A stretch of DNA of 64,000 nt, from the NCBI GenBank assembly GCA_017550285.1, contig JAFZPP010000021.1:21874-85873 (forward strand), given 5' to 3'. Positions 7,733-61,204 of the stretch are shown here, piece by piece. The notes beneath the pieces were generated by a model. That model saw only the letters and a program-made list of their open reading frames with translations, was not told the origin of the DNA and searched no databases. How positions within the stretch are numbered: position 1 is the stretch's first letter; each line of letters starts with the position of its first letter. The position numbers and the translations under genes are program-made. The DNA comes from Oscillospiraceae bacterium. Its GTDB lineage: Bacteria > Bacillota > Clostridia > Oscillospirales > Ruminococcaceae.

Positions 7733-7915
7733 CAAAAAAAGCGGACGAATCGGGTGATCCGTCCGCAGGGTTTCAAGTCTCCGCCTTGCCGTCGCCTGTG
7801 CAATAAAACCCGCTTTGAGCAGGTGGGTATCTGCCTGCGCACCTCGTGCTCCCTGGCAACCGCCGAAGCGGGAGGTCTGCAATCTTTACGCAGAGCGCGA
7901 TTCCCTGAATATAAG
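7733..7915 (-). ncRNA. candidate ~180-nt structured RNA (class unknown) with its own promoter and intrinsic terminator
   Basis: No ORF. Contains a CCGC-UUCG-GCGG tetraloop hairpin nested in CUCCC/GGGAG, a GCAGG/CCUGC helix and a closing CAGGG/CCCUG helix. Ends in the terminator gcggacgg...ccgtccgc plus U7 (7733-7766). Confidence 0.45.
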
Positions 7916-7921
7916 TGTTGG

Positions 7922-7950
7922 ATTATATCAAAACAGGCTTGCTCGCACAA
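7922..7950 (-). promoter_or_regulatory. promoter of the candidate 180-nt RNA
   Basis: On the minus strand: TTGTGC, 17 nt spacer, TATAAT. Confidence 0.45.
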
Positions 7951-8044
7951 GGCAGAATGCTTTGTGTTACTATCAGTATATCAGATAGGCAGAGAAAAAT
8001 CAAGTGGCAAAGTTCACAAATATTTTCCAAAAATGTTGTGAACC

Positions 8045-8380
8045 TTATTCAGTTTCTTCCGCTTCGTCCTCATCTTCATTAAGTCTGTCGAGAAATGCCT
8101 CTGCAATACGGTCATATTCCTCATCGCTCTCGATCGGCTCCAGAACCTCATTGCCGTCCGCATCGGTCTTTGCGTTGAGCACAACGAGCTCAACCTCGCC
8201 CTCGAGCAGCTCTGCCGGATCCTCGATATGCGGAATCAGGGCAAAATAAACCTGACCGTTTTCTTCGAGAATATCAACCAGCTCAAACAGCTTCTCATTG
8301 CCTTCCTCATCCACGAGCGTATAGAGATCGGCGCCGTCCATCATTGCATCCTGTTCCATTGGTGTATTTTGATCTTGCAT
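8045..8380 (-). CDS. DUF1292 (UPF0473/YrzB-like) acidic protein
   Basis: ...LYTLVDEEGNEKLFELVDILEENGQVYFALIP...DEEYDRIAEAF... is typical of DUF1292. The start was trimmed to the ATG at 8380, which is preceded by GGAG. Confidence 0.8.
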   Translation of the reverse strand: MQDQNTPMEQDAMMDGADLYTLVDEEGNEKLFELVDILEENGQVYFALIPHIEDPAELLEGEVELVVLNAKTDADGNEVLEPIESDEEYDRIAEAFLDRLNEDEDEAEETE

Positions 8381-8474: not shown

Positions 8475-8532
8475 GCCCCCGAATTTATGCTGTAAATTTC
8501 ACGAAAATTTCACAGAAAGTTCTCGAAAACTA

Positions 8533-8561
8533 TTGACAAATGACGATAAATGTGCTATAAT
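8533..8561 (+). promoter_or_regulatory. perfect-consensus sigmaA promoter with no protein gene downstream
   Basis: TTGACA (8533-8538), 17 nt spacer, TATAAT (8556-8561). It is divergent from the DUF1292 promoter. Confidence 0.65.
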
Positions 8562-8567
8562 AAGACC

Positions 8568-9316
8568 ATAAGAAAGGCAAAGGAAATCTCCGGACGGAGG
8601 CAAAACCAAAGGTACCGCAAAGGTTCGGTACACTGCTTCCGCTGCTTGTATCATTCGAGTTTGCAGTTCTTATATGAATCCTGCGGCGTTTCCGTTCTGC
8701 ACAGTGCAGAAATCGTGAACGGCTGACAGCGTTGTCAGCATAGGATCCTGCCGCAAATTCTGATTCGGAAAGGATGCGTGAGACCAATGGACGCAATGGA
8801 AATTGTCCCATTCATTGGCGAAGGCTCGCGCGCAGTGGATTCTGTGTAACATAATTTGTATCCTTGCTTCCGGCTGACCGTGCAGCATCAAGCACGAAGT
8901 GCACCGGATATGCGGATACAGTTCCGATATGGAAGACGGCACAGAATTCAGCTGCTCGACGGAGTAGTGCGAAAGCAGTGCGTGTGCCGCAATGAAGCAG
9001 GAAGGTTGTAATCAGCAGACTGTGCAGTGGGTGCAGTCACCGGCGGAGACTCAGCAGCGTTTGATGAGTCGGTCAGCCGCCGTCAGAAATGTTGAAATCG
9101 CCAATGATGATATGGGAAGTGATCTTTACTCCGTGCGTCGGCAATCAGGTGCACGACTGGTTGGCGTCAGCTTGGGGACACCGGAGCGCATTCCCGTGAA
9201 TGTGAAGCAGTTCCCGCACAAACGCTCGCCTGAGCGTAGATATAGACTCTTTCTATACATCAAAATTGAATAAAAAATAAGGGGAGGCTCTGGCATGAGA
9301 GCCTCCTTTATTCTTT
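8568..9316 (+). ncRNA. candidate large (~740 nt) structured non-coding RNA, class unassigned
   Basis: The region runs from the consensus promoter to the terminator. It holds only short, RBS-less ORFs on mixed frames. Nested helices are dense, e.g. 8682-8687/8750-8755 enclosing three hairpins, 8938-8943/8983-8988 and 9040-9046/9077-9082. Confidence 0.4.
9272..9316. terminator. bidirectional intrinsic terminator
   Basis: Stem aaggggaggctc/gagcctcctt, with a T-rich tract on the + side and ttatttttt on the - side. It serves the candidate RNA (+) and the membrane-protein gene ending at 9322 (-). Confidence 0.7.
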
Positions 9317-9321
9317 GCTGT

Positions 9322-9927
9322 TCAGATTGTATTCTGACCGTGCGGCTTATAGTTTTCTTCGAGAATCCGCAGCAGCAGCGCCCTGTCCTCGGATTCCGGA
9401 ACCGGATGCTTGGCAGGCGTCATATTCCGCTTATGATACAGCAGCAACGTCTCGCCGCTGAAGGCGTAGCTGAATTTTTCGGCGGGGGTAAAATCATCCG
9501 GATAATATACGCCCTCCGCCGTGATATATTCATATTTGAATGCGGTCAGATCCAGCGTATGAATGATGCAGGAGAACGCCCAGAAGGCAAGGAGATACGA
9601 ATACCATTTGATCTTGACTTCATGGTTCGTGCGCAGGATTTCGCGGTGCTCTTCGACCGTCTGCGACGGAGGGCGTCCCGTACCGTCGCAGAGTCCGCTG
9701 TCGATCTCTTTGATTCGATCGGCTGCGAAATAAATGCTGCTGCCTGCGATGAAAATCCAGAGCACAGCGCAGATGAGATTGATAACTGCGGCGCGGCGGT
9801 CTTTCAGGACTTTGACGCGCTCCGGTTCCTGTTTGATCCGTCTGCCGAATTTGATATAGCGGTAAATTGTCCAGATAACCAATGCGGCAAGCAGAATCCA
9901 TGCTGCGATGTAGAGAATCGTTTTCAT
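9322..9927 (-). CDS. hypothetical membrane protein
   Basis: The start was trimmed to MKTILYIAAWILLAALVIW (RBS GAGGGA), which avoids overlap with the upstream gene. About four predicted TM segments. No family recognised. Confidence 0.65.
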   Translation of the reverse strand: MKTILYIAAWILLAALVIWTIYRYIKFGRRIKQEPERVKVLKDRRAAVINLICAVLWIFIAGSSIYFAADRIKEIDSGLCDGTGRPPSQTVEEHREILRTNHEVKIKWYSYLLAFWAFSCIIHTLDLTAFKYEYITAEGVYYPDDFTPAEKFSYAFSGETLLLYHKRNMTPAKHPVPESEDRALLLRILEENYKPHGQNTI

Positions 9928-9956
9928 ATGTGTTCCCTCGTTATGTTCTGATTGTA

Positions 9957-11295: not shown

Positions 11296-11416
11296 CGGAA
11301 ACCCTCCTTTGGTTTATATTGCAGCTTTATTATACCACATTTTTCGCTGGATTTCAAGCAGACAGATAAAGAATTCGGAAGGCGGAAGTCTTTGATGCGT
11401 GGGAAGCTGCGGAATA

Positions 11417-11512
11417 TGGAGCAGGAAGGAGGGAGGAGAAGGGAGGAAGGCGGAGGTAGGAAGGAGGAAGTATTGAGGAGTGAGGAGATAGGAGTGAGGA
11501 GTTGTGGTATCC
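11417..11512. repeat. polypurine (GGA/GGAGG-rich) tract, about 90 percent purine on the + strand
   Basis: ggagcaggaaggagggaggagaagggaggaaggcggaggtaggaaggaggaag...gtgaggagataggagtgaggag. It lies between divergent promoters. A small hairpin atccgc-ttc-gcggat plus gattttg follows at ~11519-11540. Confidence 0.8.
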
Positions 11513-11607: not shown

Positions 11608-11636
11608 TTGACAATCGGGCGGAGTTATGGTATACT
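11608..11636 (+). promoter_or_regulatory. promoter of the FHA-RodA-PBP operon
   Basis: TTGACA, 17 nt spacer, TATACT, with TGG as an extended -10. Confidence 0.55.
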
Positions 11637-30099: not shown

Positions 30100-30279
30100 T
30101 CAGCGGAAGCGCCGCTGCGCTTCGTCATAGCGAAAGCCTGCCGCCTTCATTTTTTCAGTCAGTGCAGAAAGATCAAGCTGATGCTCGGAGCAGAATTCCG
30201 CAAGCGTCAGCCCCGTATCGCGGAGCTGCGTATTCAGAAAGCTGAACAGAATAAACACATCGTTCGGGAGCTGCATCAT
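30100..30279 (-). CDS. DUF4250-family small protein (59 aa, below the ORF-track cutoff)
   Basis: MMQLPNDVFILFSFLNTQLRDTGLTLAEFCSEHQLDLSALTEKMKAAGFRYDEAQRRFR fits the DUF4250 pattern (LP.D..L.S..N..LRD...L.E.C......YDE....F). The ATG overlaps the upstream stop. Confidence 0.7.
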   Translation of the reverse strand: MMQLPNDVFILFSFLNTQLRDTGLTLAEFCSEHQLDLSALTEKMKAAGFRYDEAQRRFR

Positions 30280-31205
30280 GCCGCCTCCCTTCCAAGTTCT
30301 TCATCTGCAATCTCCGGCTCGGCTTCCTTCGGCACGCGCAGATCCTGCGGCATCGCTTCCAGAATCAGCGGGTCGATCACGACCGCCTGCTTGGAAAGTC
30401 CCTCATAGGCTGCCTCGACCGCCTTCCTGTAATAGGGCGTGATATCGTTGCCCGACATCGAATCGCAGAAATAATAATAATCATCGTCATAGCCGATCAG
30501 CACCAGTGCGTGCTCCGGATTGACGAATTCATAGAGCTTGCCGTCCGGCAGAATCCAGTGAAATTCGCTGACGTAGGGACGCTGCATGTAGATCGTGCCC
30601 CAGAAAATGACCGGCTGTCCCTTGTCGATAAAATCGCTGCACAGCTTATCAATCGAATAGCCGTTCAGCGGTTTGGCGAGTCCGTCCGCGATCTTGTTGA
30701 TCGCCTTGGAGATCGCCGTATTATAGCAGCCGAAGCCGCCGGGGTCTCTCGGATCACCGATGAAGAATTCCCACGGGCTTGCGCCGTGCATCTCGCCGTC
30801 TTTTCCGACATCCGGATACGCCGCTTTCGGCAGATACTTTTCCACAAAGCGCTCAATATCAATATCCACGCCGAAATATTGCAGCACAGATACCGACGCG
30901 AACGATTCACATGCCGTAAAATAGCTTGTAAACTGCGTATAATGCGGTACACCCTGAATCACAACGCCGTTTCTGCCGTTGTAGTTTTCGAGCGTATGCT
31001 CCTGCCACGCCGGATCAATCGTGACAGTTGTCGTCGTACCGACTGTGGTAGACGTCGTCAGAATGCTCGCAAGCACATGATCCGGCAGCAGTGCCTCGGC
31101 ATCATCCGGAATCTGGATGACCTCGCCGCAGCTGCATAGAATCAGCACAAGAACCGGCGCACAGATCAGCAGCAGCAGATCGCGCAGCCGCAGATGATTC
31201 TCCAA
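30276..31205 (-). CDS. peptidase C39-like (C39_2) family lipoprotein
   Basis: Signal peptide with Cys (LILCSCG), Thr-rich spacer, then ...GVPHYTQ....CESFASVSVLQYFG...ALVLIGYDDDYYYFCDS... which resembles the papain-like C39_2 fold. Confidence 0.6.
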   Translation of the reverse strand: MENHLRLRDLLLLICAPVLVLILCSCGEVIQIPDDAEALLPDHVLASILTTSTTVGTTTTVTIDPAWQEHTLENYNGRNGVVIQGVPHYTQFTSYFTACESFASVSVLQYFGVDIDIERFVEKYLPKAAYPDVGKDGEMHGASPWEFFIGDPRDPGGFGCYNTAISKAINKIADGLAKPLNGYSIDKLCSDFIDKGQPVIFWGTIYMQRPYVSEFHWILPDGKLYEFVNPEHALVLIGYDDDYYYFCDSMSGNDITPYYRKAVEAAYEGLSKQAVVIDPLILEAMPQDLRVPKEAEPEIADEELGREAA

Positions 31206-31405
31206 TCCAATCTCTCCTCATTCGGAAATTCTTCTGTCTTTATCTACGTTATTATACACGAAAACAGATAATTTGTCAAACATCATACAATAAAATGCGC
31301 CGCATCCCTGAAAAACACATTTTCGCCGACCGCTTTTTGTAGCAATATGCCCCAAACTGCATAGAATAAGGCAAACGGCACAGCCGCAATATTTGGGAGG
31401 TTATC

Positions 31406-54608: not shown

Positions 54609-55820
54609 TTGGAAACGAAAAAGAAGACAGCCAAGCCGGTGAAAAACGCTGCGGCTGCGCAGGATATCTATGCGATGCGAAAACGCCGGAAGCGGCGCAA
54701 GGTGCTCAAGCAGAGCGTCTGGCTGCTGCTGCTGGCTGTCGTGATTCTCGTGCTGTATCAGCGCCGCGATTCGTGGATTCCGAAGCTCGAGACCATGGGC
54801 ATGCGGCATCAGAGCCGGCAGTTCGGCATCGGCGACAGCGACGGCAATTTCCCGATTCAGATTTACGGCGATTCTGATTATCAGCTCGCGGAGGCAGGCG
54901 GGTATCTGCTGCTGCTCAATGACTCCTATTTGTATTTCTATGAGCCGGACGGCAGTATGACAGCCGCGCGGAAGCATACCTACGGCAATGCGATGCTCCG
55001 GACGGCAGGCGATTTCGGTCTGCTCTATGAAAACGGCGGTACGCATTTCCGTCTGGAGACGCCTGCCAAGCAGCGCTATGAGAAGACGCTCAGTGAGCAG
55101 ATCGTTTTCGGCAGAGTCTCAGCGAACGGCTCTGCGGCGATTGTCACCGGCGCCGAGGACTGCGCATGCAGGCTGTATGTCTTCAACAGCAAGGGGCAGC
55201 AGATTTACAAGCGAAGCTGCGTGGAGCGAATTTCAGAGCTCGCCTTCAACGCCGATGCGACCGGATGCTATGCGGTACGGATCGAGGCGGAGAACGGTGT
55301 GATGAAATCTGTCGTAAATTCTTACACTTTTTCGTCTGAGGCTTGTAATTGGTCGAGTCAACCCCTTGACATGCTTGCGATTTCGGTATATAATACCAGT
55401 GAGGGGAATCTGTTTCTTTTCGGGGATACCAAGTGCTGCTGTCTTGATCCGAACGGGATGGTGCTTTCGAGCTATACCTATCCGGATAAACTGATCCGCA
55501 GCTGCTTCTACGGCAATACGGCTGCCATGCTGTTCGGCAATGATGAGACAAGAACCAAATCGGTTGTCGTAATCAACGGGTCATCGGGTACGCCGGCAGT
55601 CCGCACCTATGAAAAGGATGTGCGGGATATCGGACTGATGACAGAGAACGAGGCGCTGATTGTCCAGCTTCGCAAAGAGACCGAGACACTCAGCTATCAG
55701 TGCAATGTTTTGCAGACAACACCGCTGGATGACAGCTATGACGGCTTCCTGCGAATCGGACAGAATCTGTTTCTGAAGGGCTACGATCATATTGACCGGC
55801 TGGAATACCATGCGCCCTGA
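54609..55820 (+). CDS. membrane-anchored hypothetical protein (possibly DUF5711-like)
   Basis: TTG start. Basic N-terminus, one TM segment (VWLLLLAVVILVLY), then a ~330-aa beta-rich domain. Confidence 0.65.
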   Translation: METKKKTAKPVKNAAAAQDIYAMRKRRKRRKVLKQSVWLLLLAVVILVLYQRRDSWIPKLETMGMRHQSRQFGIGDSDGNFPIQIYGDSDYQLAEAGGYLLLLNDSYLYFYEPDGSMTAARKHTYGNAMLRTAGDFGLLYENGGTHFRLETPAKQRYEKTLSEQIVFGRVSANGSAAIVTGAEDCACRLYVFNSKGQQIYKRSCVERISELAFNADATGCYAVRIEAENGVMKSVVNSYTFSSEACNWSSQPLDMLAISVYNTSEGNLFLFGDTKCCCLDPNGMVLSSYTYPDKLIRSCFYGNTAAMLFGNDETRTKSVVVINGSSGTPAVRTYEKDVRDIGLMTENEALIVQLRKETETLSYQCNVLQTTPLDDSYDGFLRIGQNLFLKGYDHIDRLEYHAP

Positions 55821-55895
55821 CAGACGTTTTTTCTCACAGAAACAAAAATTGCATTCGCTGACGGCGAATTGTGAAGAACAACGGAGGATAAGTGC

Positions 55896-56810
55896 ATGAG
55901 CACGTCTTTTTGGTGGATATTTGATTTCCTTGTGATTGCGATTGCGGTTTATATTGTCATTGTCAACGCAAAGCGCGGTGTTACAAAATCTATTGTGCTC
56001 GGGATCGGCTACGTGCTGACGACCGTGGCGGCATCGCTGCTGGCTGCTGTTGCGGCACCGGCGCTCTATCAGTCTGTCGCATATGACAATAACATCAGGG
56101 GAATCACTACGGCGAATAAGCATATGGATTTTGCCGAGGTCTTTTCCGAAGCAATCAACAATCAGGATTACGGCTACATCATGGATGTAAGTGCTGCCGA
56201 GAGAATTCTGAAAAATCCGAAGAAGTGTGCGGATTTTGAGAATGAATTTTATGACTACGGAGCCGATAAAACCGGCGGACCCTTTGCAACGAGACAGGAG
56301 TTCGGCGCAGTGCTGCGCAATGCCTTTCTCGAAAGCTACGGCAATGAGCTCGATGAGCGCGTGCCGCGCTATGTCAGAATGTATTTTGACAAGCAGGTGC
56401 GCTCGGATCCGACGCTTATGGGCAAGCTGATTACCGTCTTTTATGATAACACCTTGTATCCGGATGACAAAGCGGATGTGCTGGAACAGCAGTTTGCTGC
56501 AAAGCCGACAACCGAAGTCCTGCAAATCTTCATCTATCTGATTATTTTCTCCGTGGTTATGGTCATTGTCGCGCTGATCAGTGCGATCTTGCAGAACCGG
56601 ATTTTCTTCAACATTCAGAATTCGACGGATCATGCAGTCGGCATGCTGATCGGTGTGATCGAAGCAGGCGTAATGCTGGTGCTCTTTACGCTGATCTCCC
56701 GTCTGCTCGTGCTGCTGATGGGCGGGCACTTCCTGTTCTTCAATGAGGAGACAATCGCGGAGACCAAGCTCTTCTCGTTCTTCTATGATCATATCAGCAT
56801 CTTATTGTAA
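55896..56810 (+). CDS. CvpA-like membrane protein
   Basis: RBS GGAGG. N-terminal ...FDFLVIAIAVYIVIVNAKRGVTKSIVLGIGYVL... resembles the CvpA family. Additional C-terminal TM helices. Confidence 0.55.
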   Translation: MSTSFWWIFDFLVIAIAVYIVIVNAKRGVTKSIVLGIGYVLTTVAASLLAAVAAPALYQSVAYDNNIRGITTANKHMDFAEVFSEAINNQDYGYIMDVSAAERILKNPKKCADFENEFYDYGADKTGGPFATRQEFGAVLRNAFLESYGNELDERVPRYVRMYFDKQVRSDPTLMGKLITVFYDNTLYPDDKADVLEQQFAAKPTTEVLQIFIYLIIFSVVMVIVALISAILQNRIFFNIQNSTDHAVGMLIGVIEAGVMLVLFTLISRLLVLLMGGHFLFFNEETIAETKLFSFFYDHISILL

Positions 56811-56921
56811 TTTATAAGAAAATTCCTGCACCTCTGCTTCGGATTCTGCCGCAGCAGAGGCGCAGTATTCCATTTTCAGAAAGGAGCGCGTATCCTCGGA
56901 ACAGGGGAGCGCGGATATTAT

Positions 56922-59261
56922 ATGGTTCTTTGCAGTCATTGTAAAAAACGTCCTGCGATTGTGTTCATTACATCCATGCACGGTTCGGAGAAGCGGAATG
57001 AAGGCTTATGCCTTGTGTGCGCGAAAAAGCTGAATATTCCGCAGGTTGCCGAATATATGGAGCATATGGGCATTTCGGATGAGGACATTGAACAGATGAG
57101 CGACCAGATGATGGATCTGCTCGATAATGAAGACGAAAACTTTGAAATGGGCGGCGCAAGCACCATGCCCGGCTTTATCCAGCGGCTCTTTACCGATCAT
57201 CCGGTGACGGATTCGGAAAAGGAGACACCGAAGGAGAAGGACGATGAGCCGAAGAAAACGGAAAAGGCAAGCGATCTCTTCGGCAGATTCGGGGATAAAT
57301 CCCGCGACGGCAAGGATGAGCGCAAGTCCAGAAAAAAGGAACGTAAAAAGGAGCTCAAATATCTCGACAGCTACTGCACGAATCTCAGCAAACGTGCTGA
57401 GGAGGGGAAAATGGACGGCGTCATCGGCAGAGATACCGAGATCGCGCGCGTGATTCAGATTCTCTCGCGCCGTCAGAAGAATAACCCCTGCCTGATCGGT
57501 GAACCGGGCGTCGGCAAGACGGCTGTTGCGGAGGGCATTGCGCTGCGGATTGCATCCGGCGATGTGCCTTTCCACCTCAAGGATAAGAAAATCTATCTGC
57601 TCGATATGACCGCGCTCGTCGCAGGTACGCAGTTCCGCGGACAGTTCGAGAGCAGAGTCAAGGGGCTGGTCGAGGAGGTCAAGGAGCAGGGGAATATCAT
57701 CCTCTTCATTGACGAGGTGCACAGCCTTGTCGGTGCAGGTGACTCCGAGGGCTCGATGAATGCTGCGAATATCCTAAAGCCTGCGCTCTCGAGAGGAGAG
57801 GTGCAGGTCATCGGTGCGACCACCTTCACCGAATACCGCAAATATATCGAGAAGGACGGTGCGCTGGAGCGCCGTTTCCAGCCGGTCAGAGTCGATGAAC
57901 CGACGATTGAGGATACCGTTGAGATTCTCAAGGGCGTTGCGAAATACTATGAGGAATTCCACCGCGTGCATATCTCTCCGGCGATGCTGCGGCTCTGCAC
58001 GGTGCTCTCCGAGCGCTATATCACAGACCGTTTTCTGCCGGATAAGGCGATTGACCTGCTGGACGAGAGCTGCGCGTATGTCAGCATCCGGCATCCGGAG
58101 CTGACCGAGCTCGACCGCCTGACAACTGAAATTGCCGAGAAGCAGGAGCAGATCGACGATATTGAAGCCGACCAGAATCCGGATTATCAGAAGCTCGCAG
58201 AGCGCAAGGGCGAGATGATTCACCTGAAAGCGCGCTTTGATGAACTGACCGAGCATCCGGTCGAGGTCAATGTGGAGGCGGGCGATCTGGCGCATGTGAT
58301 CGAGATCTGGACGGGGATTCCCGCAAACAAGATTGAGGAAACCGAATATGCCAAGCTGCGCGACCTCGAGCCGCATCTGAAAGAGCATATCATCGGTCAG
58401 GATGAGGCAATCGCCGCACTTGCAAAGGCGATCAAGCGCAGCCGCGTGCAGATGACTGCGCGCCGCAGACCGGCATCCTTCATTTTTGTCGGACCGACCG
58501 GCGTCGGCAAGACCGAGCTTGTCAAGGTGCTCTCCGCGGAGATGTTTGATTCGACGGAGCCGCTGATCCGGCTCGATATGACCGAATACATGGAAAAGCA
58601 CGCAATTTCGCGTATGATCGGCTCGCCTCCGGGCTATGTCGGCTATGATGAAGCAGGTCAGCTGACCGAGAAGGTGCGCCGCAGACCGTATTCCGTCATC
58701 CTCTTTGACGAGATCGAGAAGGCGCATCCGGATGTGATGAATCTGCTGCTGCAAATTCTCGATGAGGGCAAGATCGACGATGCGCAGGGCAGAACCGTCA
58801 ACTTCGAGAACACGATCATCATTATGACCTCGAATGCCGGCAGCACGGATAAATCCACGGGCGTCGGCTTCAACCGCACCGAGGAGGAAATCTCCAAAGA
58901 GAAGGCGCTGAAAGCGCTCAAGGACTTCCTGCGTCCGGAATTCGTCGGCAGAATCGACGAGATTATCGTTTTCAAGCCGCTGAGCGTCGAGGATTATGCC
59001 CGTATTGCTGCACTGATGCTCAAGGAGACCGCAGCAGCACTGTCCGAGCGCGGCATCCTGCTTGACTGGGACGATGCAGCGCTGAAAGCCGTTGCGGAGA
59101 AGGCACACGGTCACCGCTACGGTGCGCGTGACATCCGCCGCGTGCTGCGCGAGGATGTCGAGGACCCGATTGCCTCGATGATTGTCGATGCGGAAATGCC
59201 CCTCAGACTGCTGCATATCCGCGGCACAGAGGACGGTGTCAAGGTCGAATCCGAAGAATAA
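56922..59261 (+). CDS. ClpE-type Clp/Hsp100 AAA+ ATPase (N-terminal zinc-ribbon, two nucleotide-binding domains)
   Basis: CSHCKK...CLVCAKK zinc ribbon. Walker A motifs GEPGVGKTA and [10 protein letters not shown] ClpP-docking-type VGF loop. Confidence 0.88.
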
Positions 59262-61175: not shown

Positions 61176-61204
61176 TTGACAAAGCCTTGTAAAACATGTA
61201 TAAT
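61176..61204 (+). promoter_or_regulatory. consensus promoter of a candidate small RNA
   Basis: TTGACA (61176-61181), 17 nt spacer, TATAAT (61199-61204). Confidence 0.6.

Follow-up and report, generated by a model that had tools for sequence, protein, structure and literature searches.

What does a consensus promoter transcribe when no evident protein gene follows it? This question is raised by nucleotides 8533–9316 (+ strand) of a 64,000-nt stretch of contig JAFZPP010000021.1 from an Oscillospiraceae bacterium (assembly GCA_017550285.1); the whole stretch is referred to below as the window. A sequence-only reading of the window had proposed that the promoter at 8533 drives synthesis of a large structured noncoding RNA (ncRNA), a proposal that is now supported by conserved gene ends, covariation and the lack of codon periodicity among homologues. 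We are confident that the interval encodes a structured ncRNA and that Rfam does not contain its family, and we consider it probable that it is a self-contained gene for a highly structured ncRNA (~750 nt; 635–838 nt within the family) whose family is undescribed. New is used here in the sense that no Rfam 15 family and no description in the literature were found; orphan large ornate RNAs are already known as a category.

The limits of the gene were set by the following features.

8500 to 8532, + strand: A/T-rich stretch 5' of the −35 element (CACGAAAATTTCACAGAAAGTTCTCGAAAACTA), conserved over seven loci in alignment A1.
8533 to 8561, + strand: predicted sigma-A/sigma-70 promoter, with −35 TTGACA at 8533–8538, a 17-nt spacer and −10 TATAAT at 8556–8561.
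8568 to 9316, + strand: predicted large structured ncRNA transcript of ~750 nt, based on an nhmmer profile, alignments A2 and A3 and covariation.
9274 to 9316, + strand: intrinsic terminator (A-tract, stem 9280–9291/9298–9309, T-tract), usable from the − strand too.

The perfect TTGACA-17-TATAAT sequence was found exactly where the sequence-only reading had placed it, with an extended −10 element (TGC at 8553–8555) directly before the −10 hexamer. It is perfect in every homologous copy (15+), nearly always together with TGTGCTATAAT. The A/T-rich stretch preceding it is UP-element-like and may function as an UP element. The terminator stem contains 12 bp, six of them G-C, and is followed by a T-run (9280–9309). 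As had been proposed for a strong hairpin at this position, it is the next terminator on this strand; in fact, it is the sole + strand terminator-like site 3' of the 8533 promoter. Covariation was observed in 6 of 17 pairs of the terminator stem, and AAAUAAGGGG...CCUUUAUUU of the terminator does not vary among the copies; this is so even in locus L022, where the 3' gene is co-directional with the RNA. Every full-length copy has thus retained its own promoter and its own terminator. The 5' end of the transcript was placed ~7 nt after the −10 element and the 3' end in the T-run, both on the basis of the promoter and terminator. An nhmmer profile built from the homologues identified one copy only in the window, spanning 8562–9315.

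Promoters of this quality are overrepresented in the window, with nine matches at ≤1 mismatch compared to 0.14 expected in a shuffled window. The 8533 promoter had been described as the only perfect consensus apart from the one at 61176 (61176–61204, +). That claim did not stand, and the promoter is not nearly unique, because further perfect copies are present at 31251–31279 (−) and 55366–55394 (+). The former leads to a 309-aa open reading frame (ORF; 30276–31205, −). The latter aims antisense into a 403-aa ORF (55581–56792, −) that has its own near-consensus promoter at 56917–56945 (−).

Homologues of the element were obtained from three sources. The gene divergent from the RNA encodes a DUF1292 protein, and a search with this protein against one genome per GTDB species yielded six syntenic loci (L007–L012). 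These are from Oscillospiraceae/Clostridia metagenome-assembled genomes (MAGs) of sheep, goat and buffalo rumen and of pig, with one of undetermined origin. In these comparisons ~900 nt upstream of DUF1292 align at 67–78% identity (blastn), while the DUF1292 protein itself is 66–95% identical. The second source was a degenerate 20-base pattern derived from the most conserved block of the RNA, which was scanned on metagenome contigs. Its 11 matches comprised seven further copies and four chance matches inside protein genes (L019, L020, L023 and L024), which were discarded. Contigs coding for more distant DUF1292 proteins constituted the third source (L034–L039 and L042–L045). The resulting collection contains at least 13 distinct full-length copies of 635–838 nt, with pairwise identities of 50–82% and 110 invariant columns, besides several partial copies. 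They derive from MAGs and metagenomes of Oscillospiraceae of the rumen, the pig and other gut sources, and the taxonomic breadth known at present is a lower bound. No match was found in phage and plasmid collections by blastn or in one pattern scan of viral contigs. The RNA is single-copy and chromosomal. We also observed that L003 (1–100, the 3' end of the RNA) carries a copy 98% identical to that of the window over most of its length, whereas its last ~60 nt resemble L008-type sequence; this 3' end may reflect strain recombination or an assembly chimera.

If the interval were a protein gene, or the decayed remnant of one, a reading frame should be apparent in at least some relatives. The only ORFs longer than 60 aa between promoter and terminator are 90–93 aa in length and lie on mixed strands and in mixed frames. 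None of the promoter-to-terminator ORFs matched Pfam, and no ORF conserved by position or frame was found across the loci. The possibility raised earlier, that relatives would contain an intact protein gene at this position, was thus not borne out. Column variability lacked three-base periodicity (0.27/0.24/0.27, compared to 0.09/0.07/0.32 for the DUF1292 control from the same genomes), and only 19% of gap runs were multiples of three. Gene callers do sometimes annotate a 93-aa ORF here, which could be taken in favor of a decayed gene. However, a search of 5.8 billion sequences with this miscalled protein yielded just five relatives, each encoded on a short fragment of the RNA itself.

Structural conservation was examined in alignments produced with MAFFT, which is blind to structure, and consensus folds were obtained with RNAalifold. 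The + strand of the element folds at −278.6 kcal/mol (z = −4.3 relative to shuffles), and the consensus folds contained 128–171 predicted pairs. For the 13-sequence alignment (160 pairs), 90.2% of the cells were paired, compared to 37–46% when the partners were slid by 1–3 columns. Compensatory double changes were present in 65 of the 160 pairs, compared to 30.7 ± 3.7 in shuffled and 17–28 in slid controls, and 0 of 500 shuffles reached the observed value on any of five measures. An 11-sequence alignment gave results in agreement; taking both alignments, 64–65 pairs contained double changes compared to 28–31 ± 3–4 shuffled and 13–28 slid. An independent scan for stacked covarying column pairs recovered the same helices. 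Moreover, in the regions that could not be aligned (the P1 insert, the three-hairpin junction at 8682–8755, the 8869/8903 tip and the hairpins at 9022 and 9041), each homologue, when folded alone, re-formed equivalent hairpins with different sequences and lengths. The homologue search and covariation analysis called for in the sequence-only reading therefore revealed conserved sequence, conserved structure and strong compensatory change. The alignments indicate that the interval from promoter to terminator is under selection for a multi-domain secondary structure, not for a reading frame.

The predicted structure consists of the following parts.

8568 to 8673, + strand: 5' domain, helix P1 8568–8578/8663–8673 (UAAGAA.../...UUCUUAU) around variable hairpins.
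8676 to 8766, + strand: multi-stem junction domain, outer helices 8676–8680/8762–8766 and 8682–8688/8748–8755.
8767 to 8805, + strand: most conserved single-stranded/junction block, GGAAAGG(A)UGCGUGAG-CCAAUGGA, near-invariant columns in alignments A2 and A3.
8806 to 9117, + strand: central domain (~310 nt), closed by the long-range helices 8806–8809/9114–9117 and 8812–8821/9098–9107.
8823–8832/8979–8988, 8837–8847/8939–8949, and 8863–8867/8912–8916 with 8869–8874/8903–8908, + strand: central-domain helices.
8922–8926/8930–8934, 8951–8957/8962–8968 and 9022–9026/9032–9036, + strand: central-domain hairpins.
9041–9046/9077–9082 with 9048–9052/9066–9070, + strand: further central-domain helices.
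9118 to 9273, + strand: 3' domain, with 9132–9137/9150–9155, 9170–9179/9210–9219 around 9187–9193/9198–9204, and 9221–9226/9233–9238.

The central domain is the best-supported part of the structure. Double changes were observed in 6 of 10 pairs of its closing helix 8812–8821/9098–9107, including one pair that is G-C in six sequences and A-U in seven. The corresponding values were 8/11 for 8837–8847/8939–8949, 6/6 for 8869–8874/8903–8908 and 5/5 for 9048–9052/9066–9070, and the variable tips of this domain fold in every homologue. In the 3' domain, helices 9170–9179/9210–9219, 9187–9193/9198–9204 and 9221–9226/9233–9238 are among the strongest of the structure; double changes in 5/8, 4/7 and 5/6 pairs were observed within this domain. 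These helices are followed by a conserved tail (UGAUAUAG...CUUUCUAUAC...AAAAUUGAAUAA). Because the short forms L011 and L042 lack parts of the 3' domain, we regard this domain as partly peripheral. P1 was formed by every homologue folded alone, with double changes in 3 of 10 pairs and an insert of ~40 to 120 nt that contains hairpins such as CGGAGGCA/UGCUUCCG and GGUACCG/CGGUAC. Two helices of the junction domain contained double changes in 3/5 and 7/14 pairs, and 12 of 13 homologues make both of its hairpins (8695–8701/8705–8711 and 8722–8728/8733–8739) from sequences that differ. A small hairpin within the conserved block (GGAC 8792–8795/GUCC 8803–8806) is also covarying (columns 319–321/330–332). 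The invariant nucleotides are concentrated in junctions and loops, e.g. GGAAAGGAUGCGUGAG-CCAAUGGA, GCCGCAAUGAAGCA and CAAUGAUGAUAUGGGAAG, and the peripheral hairpins are variable, or deleted in the two short forms.

Three sets of nested helices had been picked out by eye from the window sequence, and two of these persisted in the comparison. Pairing of tgcggc with gccgca (8682–8687/8750–8755), with its enclosed hairpins, and pairing of 9040–9046 with 9077–9082 around gactca/tgagtc were maintained in the homologues through compensatory changes. The third, ggcaca 8938–8943 with tgtgcc 8983–8988, was not conserved; the homologues use other partners for both strands, and this helix was replaced by 8939–8949/8837–8847 and 8979–8988/8823–8832. 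RNAalifold also predicted a long-range pairing between GGAAAGG 8767–8773 and UCUUUCU 9248–9254. This pairing is tentative, as a double change occurs in only one of its seven pairs and it is lost in L042. A few 4-bp pseudoknot or tertiary candidates emerged from the covariation scan, e.g. 8911–8914/9132–9135; in view of how many column pairs were compared, these were too weak to be accepted.

Could the RNA belong to a family that is already known? It had been left open whether this was one of the known giant RNAs or a new one, and it had been noted that the hallmarks of RNase P, tmRNA, SRP RNA, 6S RNA, T-box leaders and group II introns were lacking. Rfam 15 was scanned at the gathering threshold with the window and 25 loci, and at E≤10 with relaxed filters with seven copies of the element (the window copy, L021, L025, L026, L028 and the two most divergent short forms, L042 and L011). 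The former scans identified only 6S RNA, tRNA and one unrelated T-box. The latter identified no family beyond terminator-type noise (L20 leader, Thr leader and the 3' end of CsrC). In particular, RNase P, tmRNA, SRP, group I and II introns, T-box and HEARO/omega gave no E≤10 match on the element copies, in keeping with what had been noted by eye. The ROOL, GOLLD, OLE and raiA models were likewise unmatched at this threshold. Since no Rfam 15 model matched any of the seven copies, a new family is the better supported of the two options. We also found no description in the literature of a large RNA in Oscillospiraceae or rumen, nor of one linked with DUF1292 or 6S RNA. It might be argued that the RNA is a very divergent member of a known family (OLE, ROOL, GOLLD, raiA, RNase P, a group II remnant or other) that the models missed. 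Covariance models can miss very divergent members, and the size of the RNA, its anaerobic rumen Bacillota host and its ornate architecture resemble OLE and ROOL. However, none of these families was detected at E≤10 with relaxed filters on the seven divergent copies. In addition, the genomic context contains no oapA-type neighbor, no prophage and no reverse transcriptase, IscB or TnpB gene, and phage and viral sequences gave no matches. We consider this explanation very improbable.

OLE RNA (RF01071), a large orphan ncRNA of anaerobic and extremophilic Bacillota, is thought to be a ribonucleoprotein (RNP) scaffold (PMC12054373, PMC12265935). The RNA described here is similar to OLE, which is ~600 nt, multi-domain and highly conserved, in that its invariant nucleotides are junction-rich and in that it is chromosomal, single-copy and expected to be abundant. 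It differs in that RF01071 is unmatched, in having its own promoter and terminator, whereas OLE is in an operon with oapA, in lacking a conserved membrane-protein neighbor and in having a far narrower distribution. No oapA gene adjoins the RNA; the DUF1292–6S pair is the only constant neighbor.

ROOL (~580 nt) was first seen in rumen metagenomes, and GOLLD is ~800 nt in length. Like the RNA of the window, both are giant ornate RNAs with many stems and variable peripheral hairpins. ROOL and GOLLD (RF03087 and RF01998) form RNA-only homo-oligomeric cages (PMC12286853), and such an assembly, by analogy, is one possible mode of action for the present RNA. However, neither model matched. The prophage or tRNA-rich context of ROOL and GOLLD was also not found; the neighbors here are housekeeping genes, and one of >15 copies lies beside a single tRNA-Pro gene. 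Finally, the present RNA is strictly single-copy, with no phage, viral or plasmid matches.

The raiA motif RNA, or ModT (RF03072), is a stand-alone, very abundant structured ncRNA of Bacillota (PMC10861870, PMC11706538). It is comparable in having its own promoter and terminator and a conserved position beside particular genes. The RNA described here is three times larger (635–838 nt), is confined to one clade and is unmatched by RF03072. By comparison, raiA RNA is ~200–260 nt and occurs in more than 2500 species. The linked 6S RNA is also an abundant sigma-A-dependent ncRNA whose gene has its own promoter and terminator, and it accompanies the present RNA in most lineages. 6S RNA is a ~190-nt rod whose central bubble imitates open promoter DNA, whereas the large RNA has a branched multi-domain fold with no similarity to the 6S model, and the 6S–DUF1292 pair also occurs without the large RNA.

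The genes that surround the RNA bear on whether it acts on one of them. In the window the order is GH5 cellulase (−), SseB-like (−), 6S RNA (−), DUF1292 (−) and large RNA (+), with the following features.

7775 to 7961, − strand: 6S RNA gene (Rfam RF00013, 52.5 bits), directly downstream of DUF1292.
8045 to 8380, − strand: DUF1292/UPF0473 gene, divergent from the large RNA.
8474 to 8446, − strand: predicted divergent DUF1292 promoter, TTGACA-17-TACAAT, from the promoter scan.
9322 to 9927, − strand: gene for a 201-aa membrane protein, convergent, 3' of the large RNA.

The A/T-rich stretch at 8500–8532 lies between the large-RNA promoter and the divergent DUF1292 promoter. The 6S RNA gene has a terminator at 7766–7741 (−) and possibly its own promoter at 8003–7975. 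At least eight other loci also have 6S RNA after DUF1292, and the DUF1292–6S pair was seen again in at least ten related loci, two of which lack the large RNA. Rearrangements of the outer genes have left the 6S/DUF1292/large-RNA block intact; L022, for instance, has its SseB and GH5 genes downstream of the RNA. Conversely, in L027 (1–545), a metagenome contig that covers only the 5' 320 nt of the RNA, the RNA promoter is divergent from tRNA-Pro(GGG), followed by AAA-ATPase and tgt genes, rather than from DUF1292.

The element might instead act in cis on its neighbors, as a leader, a riboswitch or an antisense or convergent-transcription regulator. One could point to the divergent arrangement with DUF1292, the two promoters being only ~60 bp apart, and to the terminator that the RNA has in common with the convergent gene in the window. 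The 3' neighbor, however, changes in almost every lineage (membrane protein, 136-aa/ABC, glycogen phosphorylase, MerR or SseB) and is usually convergent, and in most contexts there is no co-directional downstream gene. The 201-aa membrane protein gene is limited to the closest relatives of the window. An arrangement upstream of, and co-transcribed with, a conserved gene was thus not observed; the terminator ends the element, and what lies beyond it differs. Given these changing neighbors and the element's own terminator, we conclude that it is an autonomous transcription unit rather than a leader or antisense RNA of one gene. The related explanations of a decayed protein gene or a mobile-element remnant fare no better. 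The former is opposed by the coding tests described above, and the latter by the single copy and by mobile-element collections without a match. The comparative data largely refute this entire group of explanations, which we consider extremely improbable.

A 218-aa ORF (9295–9951, +) begins within the loop of the terminator (AAGGGGAGG-7 nt-ATG) and is antisense to the gene for the 201-aa membrane protein. As its ATG is not conserved (e.g. L010 and L022), this is most probably a shadow ORF. Further downstream in the window is a purine-rich tract of GGAGG/GGAAGG-like repeats at 11380–11500 (+; CCUCC repeats on the − strand) with a GC skew of 0.44–0.47. It is flanked by divergent near-consensus promoters at 11329–11357 (−) and 11608–11636 (+) and had no Rfam match.

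How might an autonomous RNA of this kind function? A consensus promoter with an extended −10 element, an A/T-rich upstream region and a stable 3' hairpin would be expected to yield an abundant and stable transcript. The RNA may then act in trans through its three-dimensional fold, as an RNP scaffold, an RNA-only assembly or a ribozyme, a mode of action that we propose by analogy and with somewhat less than even confidence. Action in trans is favored by the ~110 invariant positions, of which many lie in junctions and loops, next to peripheral hairpins that vary, and by the change of flanking genes between lineages. Such a combination of conserved core and variable periphery is that of RNAs whose activity depends on a defined three-dimensional core. 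A leader, riboswitch, antisense RNA or simple base-pairing small RNA is less likely than a trans-acting fold. A functional link to the DUF1292–6S unit is possible but is not required by this interpretation.

The fold could instead be a scaffold for display, with the RNA serving as a regulator that works by sequestration or base pairing: a CsrA-type GGA protein sponge, an RNA sponge or a 6S-linked regulator. The RNA is purine-rich and contains many conserved GGA blocks (GAAAGGA, AAUGGA, AUAUGGAAG, ACGGAG and AUGGGAAG), its linkage to the DUF1292–6S unit is tight in most lineages, and a very strong promoter would suit a stoichiometric titrator. Nevertheless, several of the GGA blocks are buried in helices, and the architecture is one of long-range helices and multi-stem junctions instead of repeated short hairpins. 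The weak CsrC/RsmZ matches in Rfam span only the terminator. As for the linkage, the DUF1292–6S pair is found without the RNA and the RNA without adjoining DUF1292. A sponge is therefore unlikely in our judgment; the weight that we give neither to it nor to a trans-acting fold falls on functions of other kinds.

Several points weigh against our interpretation of the interval as the gene for a new, structured ncRNA that acts through its fold. Relative to shuffles, the fold of the − strand is likewise favorable (z = −5.3), and consequently the strand is not given by fold energy alone. Cells with G·U outnumber those with A·C (211 compared to 68), which favors the + strand, although this count is biased toward that strand because the structure was predicted on it. 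The family is narrow and, within the reach of the searches, restricted to one clade of uncultured rumen and gut Oscillospiraceae. In L040/L041 (GCA_024404915.1; DUF1292 72% identical), DUF1292–6S is present without the RNA at the locus. There prfB lies 250 nt from DUF1292–6S (L040 2250–2500), and no copy of the RNA was found between them or in the remaining stretches examined. This state would mean loss, relocation or later gain of the RNA gene, so that the RNA is either dispensable in that lineage or relocated. Transcription, ends and abundance of the RNA have been deduced from sequence signals, and the proposed mode of action is based on analogy to OLE, ROOL/GOLLD and raiA. An earlier, uncurated description of the RNA may exist. 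Finally, a mini-ORF of 20–23 codons is open in all 18 distinct homologues.

8791 to 8853, + strand: conserved mini-ORF, ATG...TAA, 20 codons (MDAMEIVPFIGEGSRAVDSV), inside covarying helices.

The sequence-only reading had stated that no ORF preceded by a ribosome binding site was present. This requires correction, as the 20-codon ORF does exist after a distant GAAAGG, but this segment evolves as noncoding sequence. The mini-ORF suggests a dual-function transcript in which a 20–23-residue peptide is essential and the remainder provides translational control, e.g. by masking GGAAAGG with UCUUUCU 9248–9254. In all 18 distinct homologues the ORF has retained its ATG and its stop position, and the frame survives a 9-nt insertion that three of these carry. 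An invariant GAAAGG is located upstream, and a pyrimidine stretch near the 3' end is able to pair with it. On the other hand, variability is flat over codon positions (0.20/0.19/0.20), and the ratio of nonsynonymous to synonymous changes (pN/pS) is 0.82, hardly below the 0.92 and 0.94 of the shifted frames. The +1 frame across the mini-ORF is also open in 12 of 15 sequences, and the ORF is embedded in helices whose covarying partner strands are as far as 300 nt distant. The GAAAGG lies 12 nt from the ATG, which is poor spacing, and the masking helix is the poorly covarying one described above. A peptide would also leave ~690 nt of conserved structure unexplained. From its flat codon positions, pN/pS of 0.82, open +1 frame and covarying helices we take the mini-ORF to be fortuitous; it is probably not translated. 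The mini-ORF was rejected as the main product on its flat codon positions and on pN/pS close to that of the shifted frames, and we consider the dual-function transcript quite improbable, less so only than a missed known family or a cis-acting or decayed element.

The interval is thus best explained as a gene for a structured ncRNA, and RNA classes of such size and structural support are rare. To our knowledge, apart from rRNA, RNase P and introns, the only bacterial RNA classes that exceed ~500 nt and have complex conserved folds are OLE, GOLLD, ROOL and HEARO. Each of them has proved to be unusual in its biochemistry, whether as membrane RNP, RNA nanocage or guide RNA. The narrow host range within uncultured Oscillospiraceae limits both generality and experimental access. 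The clean gene structure and strong covariation make this RNA suited to cryo-electron microscopy, to ribozyme and ligand screens and to quantification in rumen metatranscriptomes. Speculatively, and with somewhat less confidence than in a trans-acting fold as such, the RNA may represent a new ornate giant-RNA class, either a ribozyme or a self-assembling RNA or RNP particle, specific to uncultured fiber-degrading rumen Oscillospiraceae. Such an RNA would be expressed at a housekeeping level by its consensus promoter and would be functionally coupled to the DUF1292–6S unit, for example in growth-phase control.

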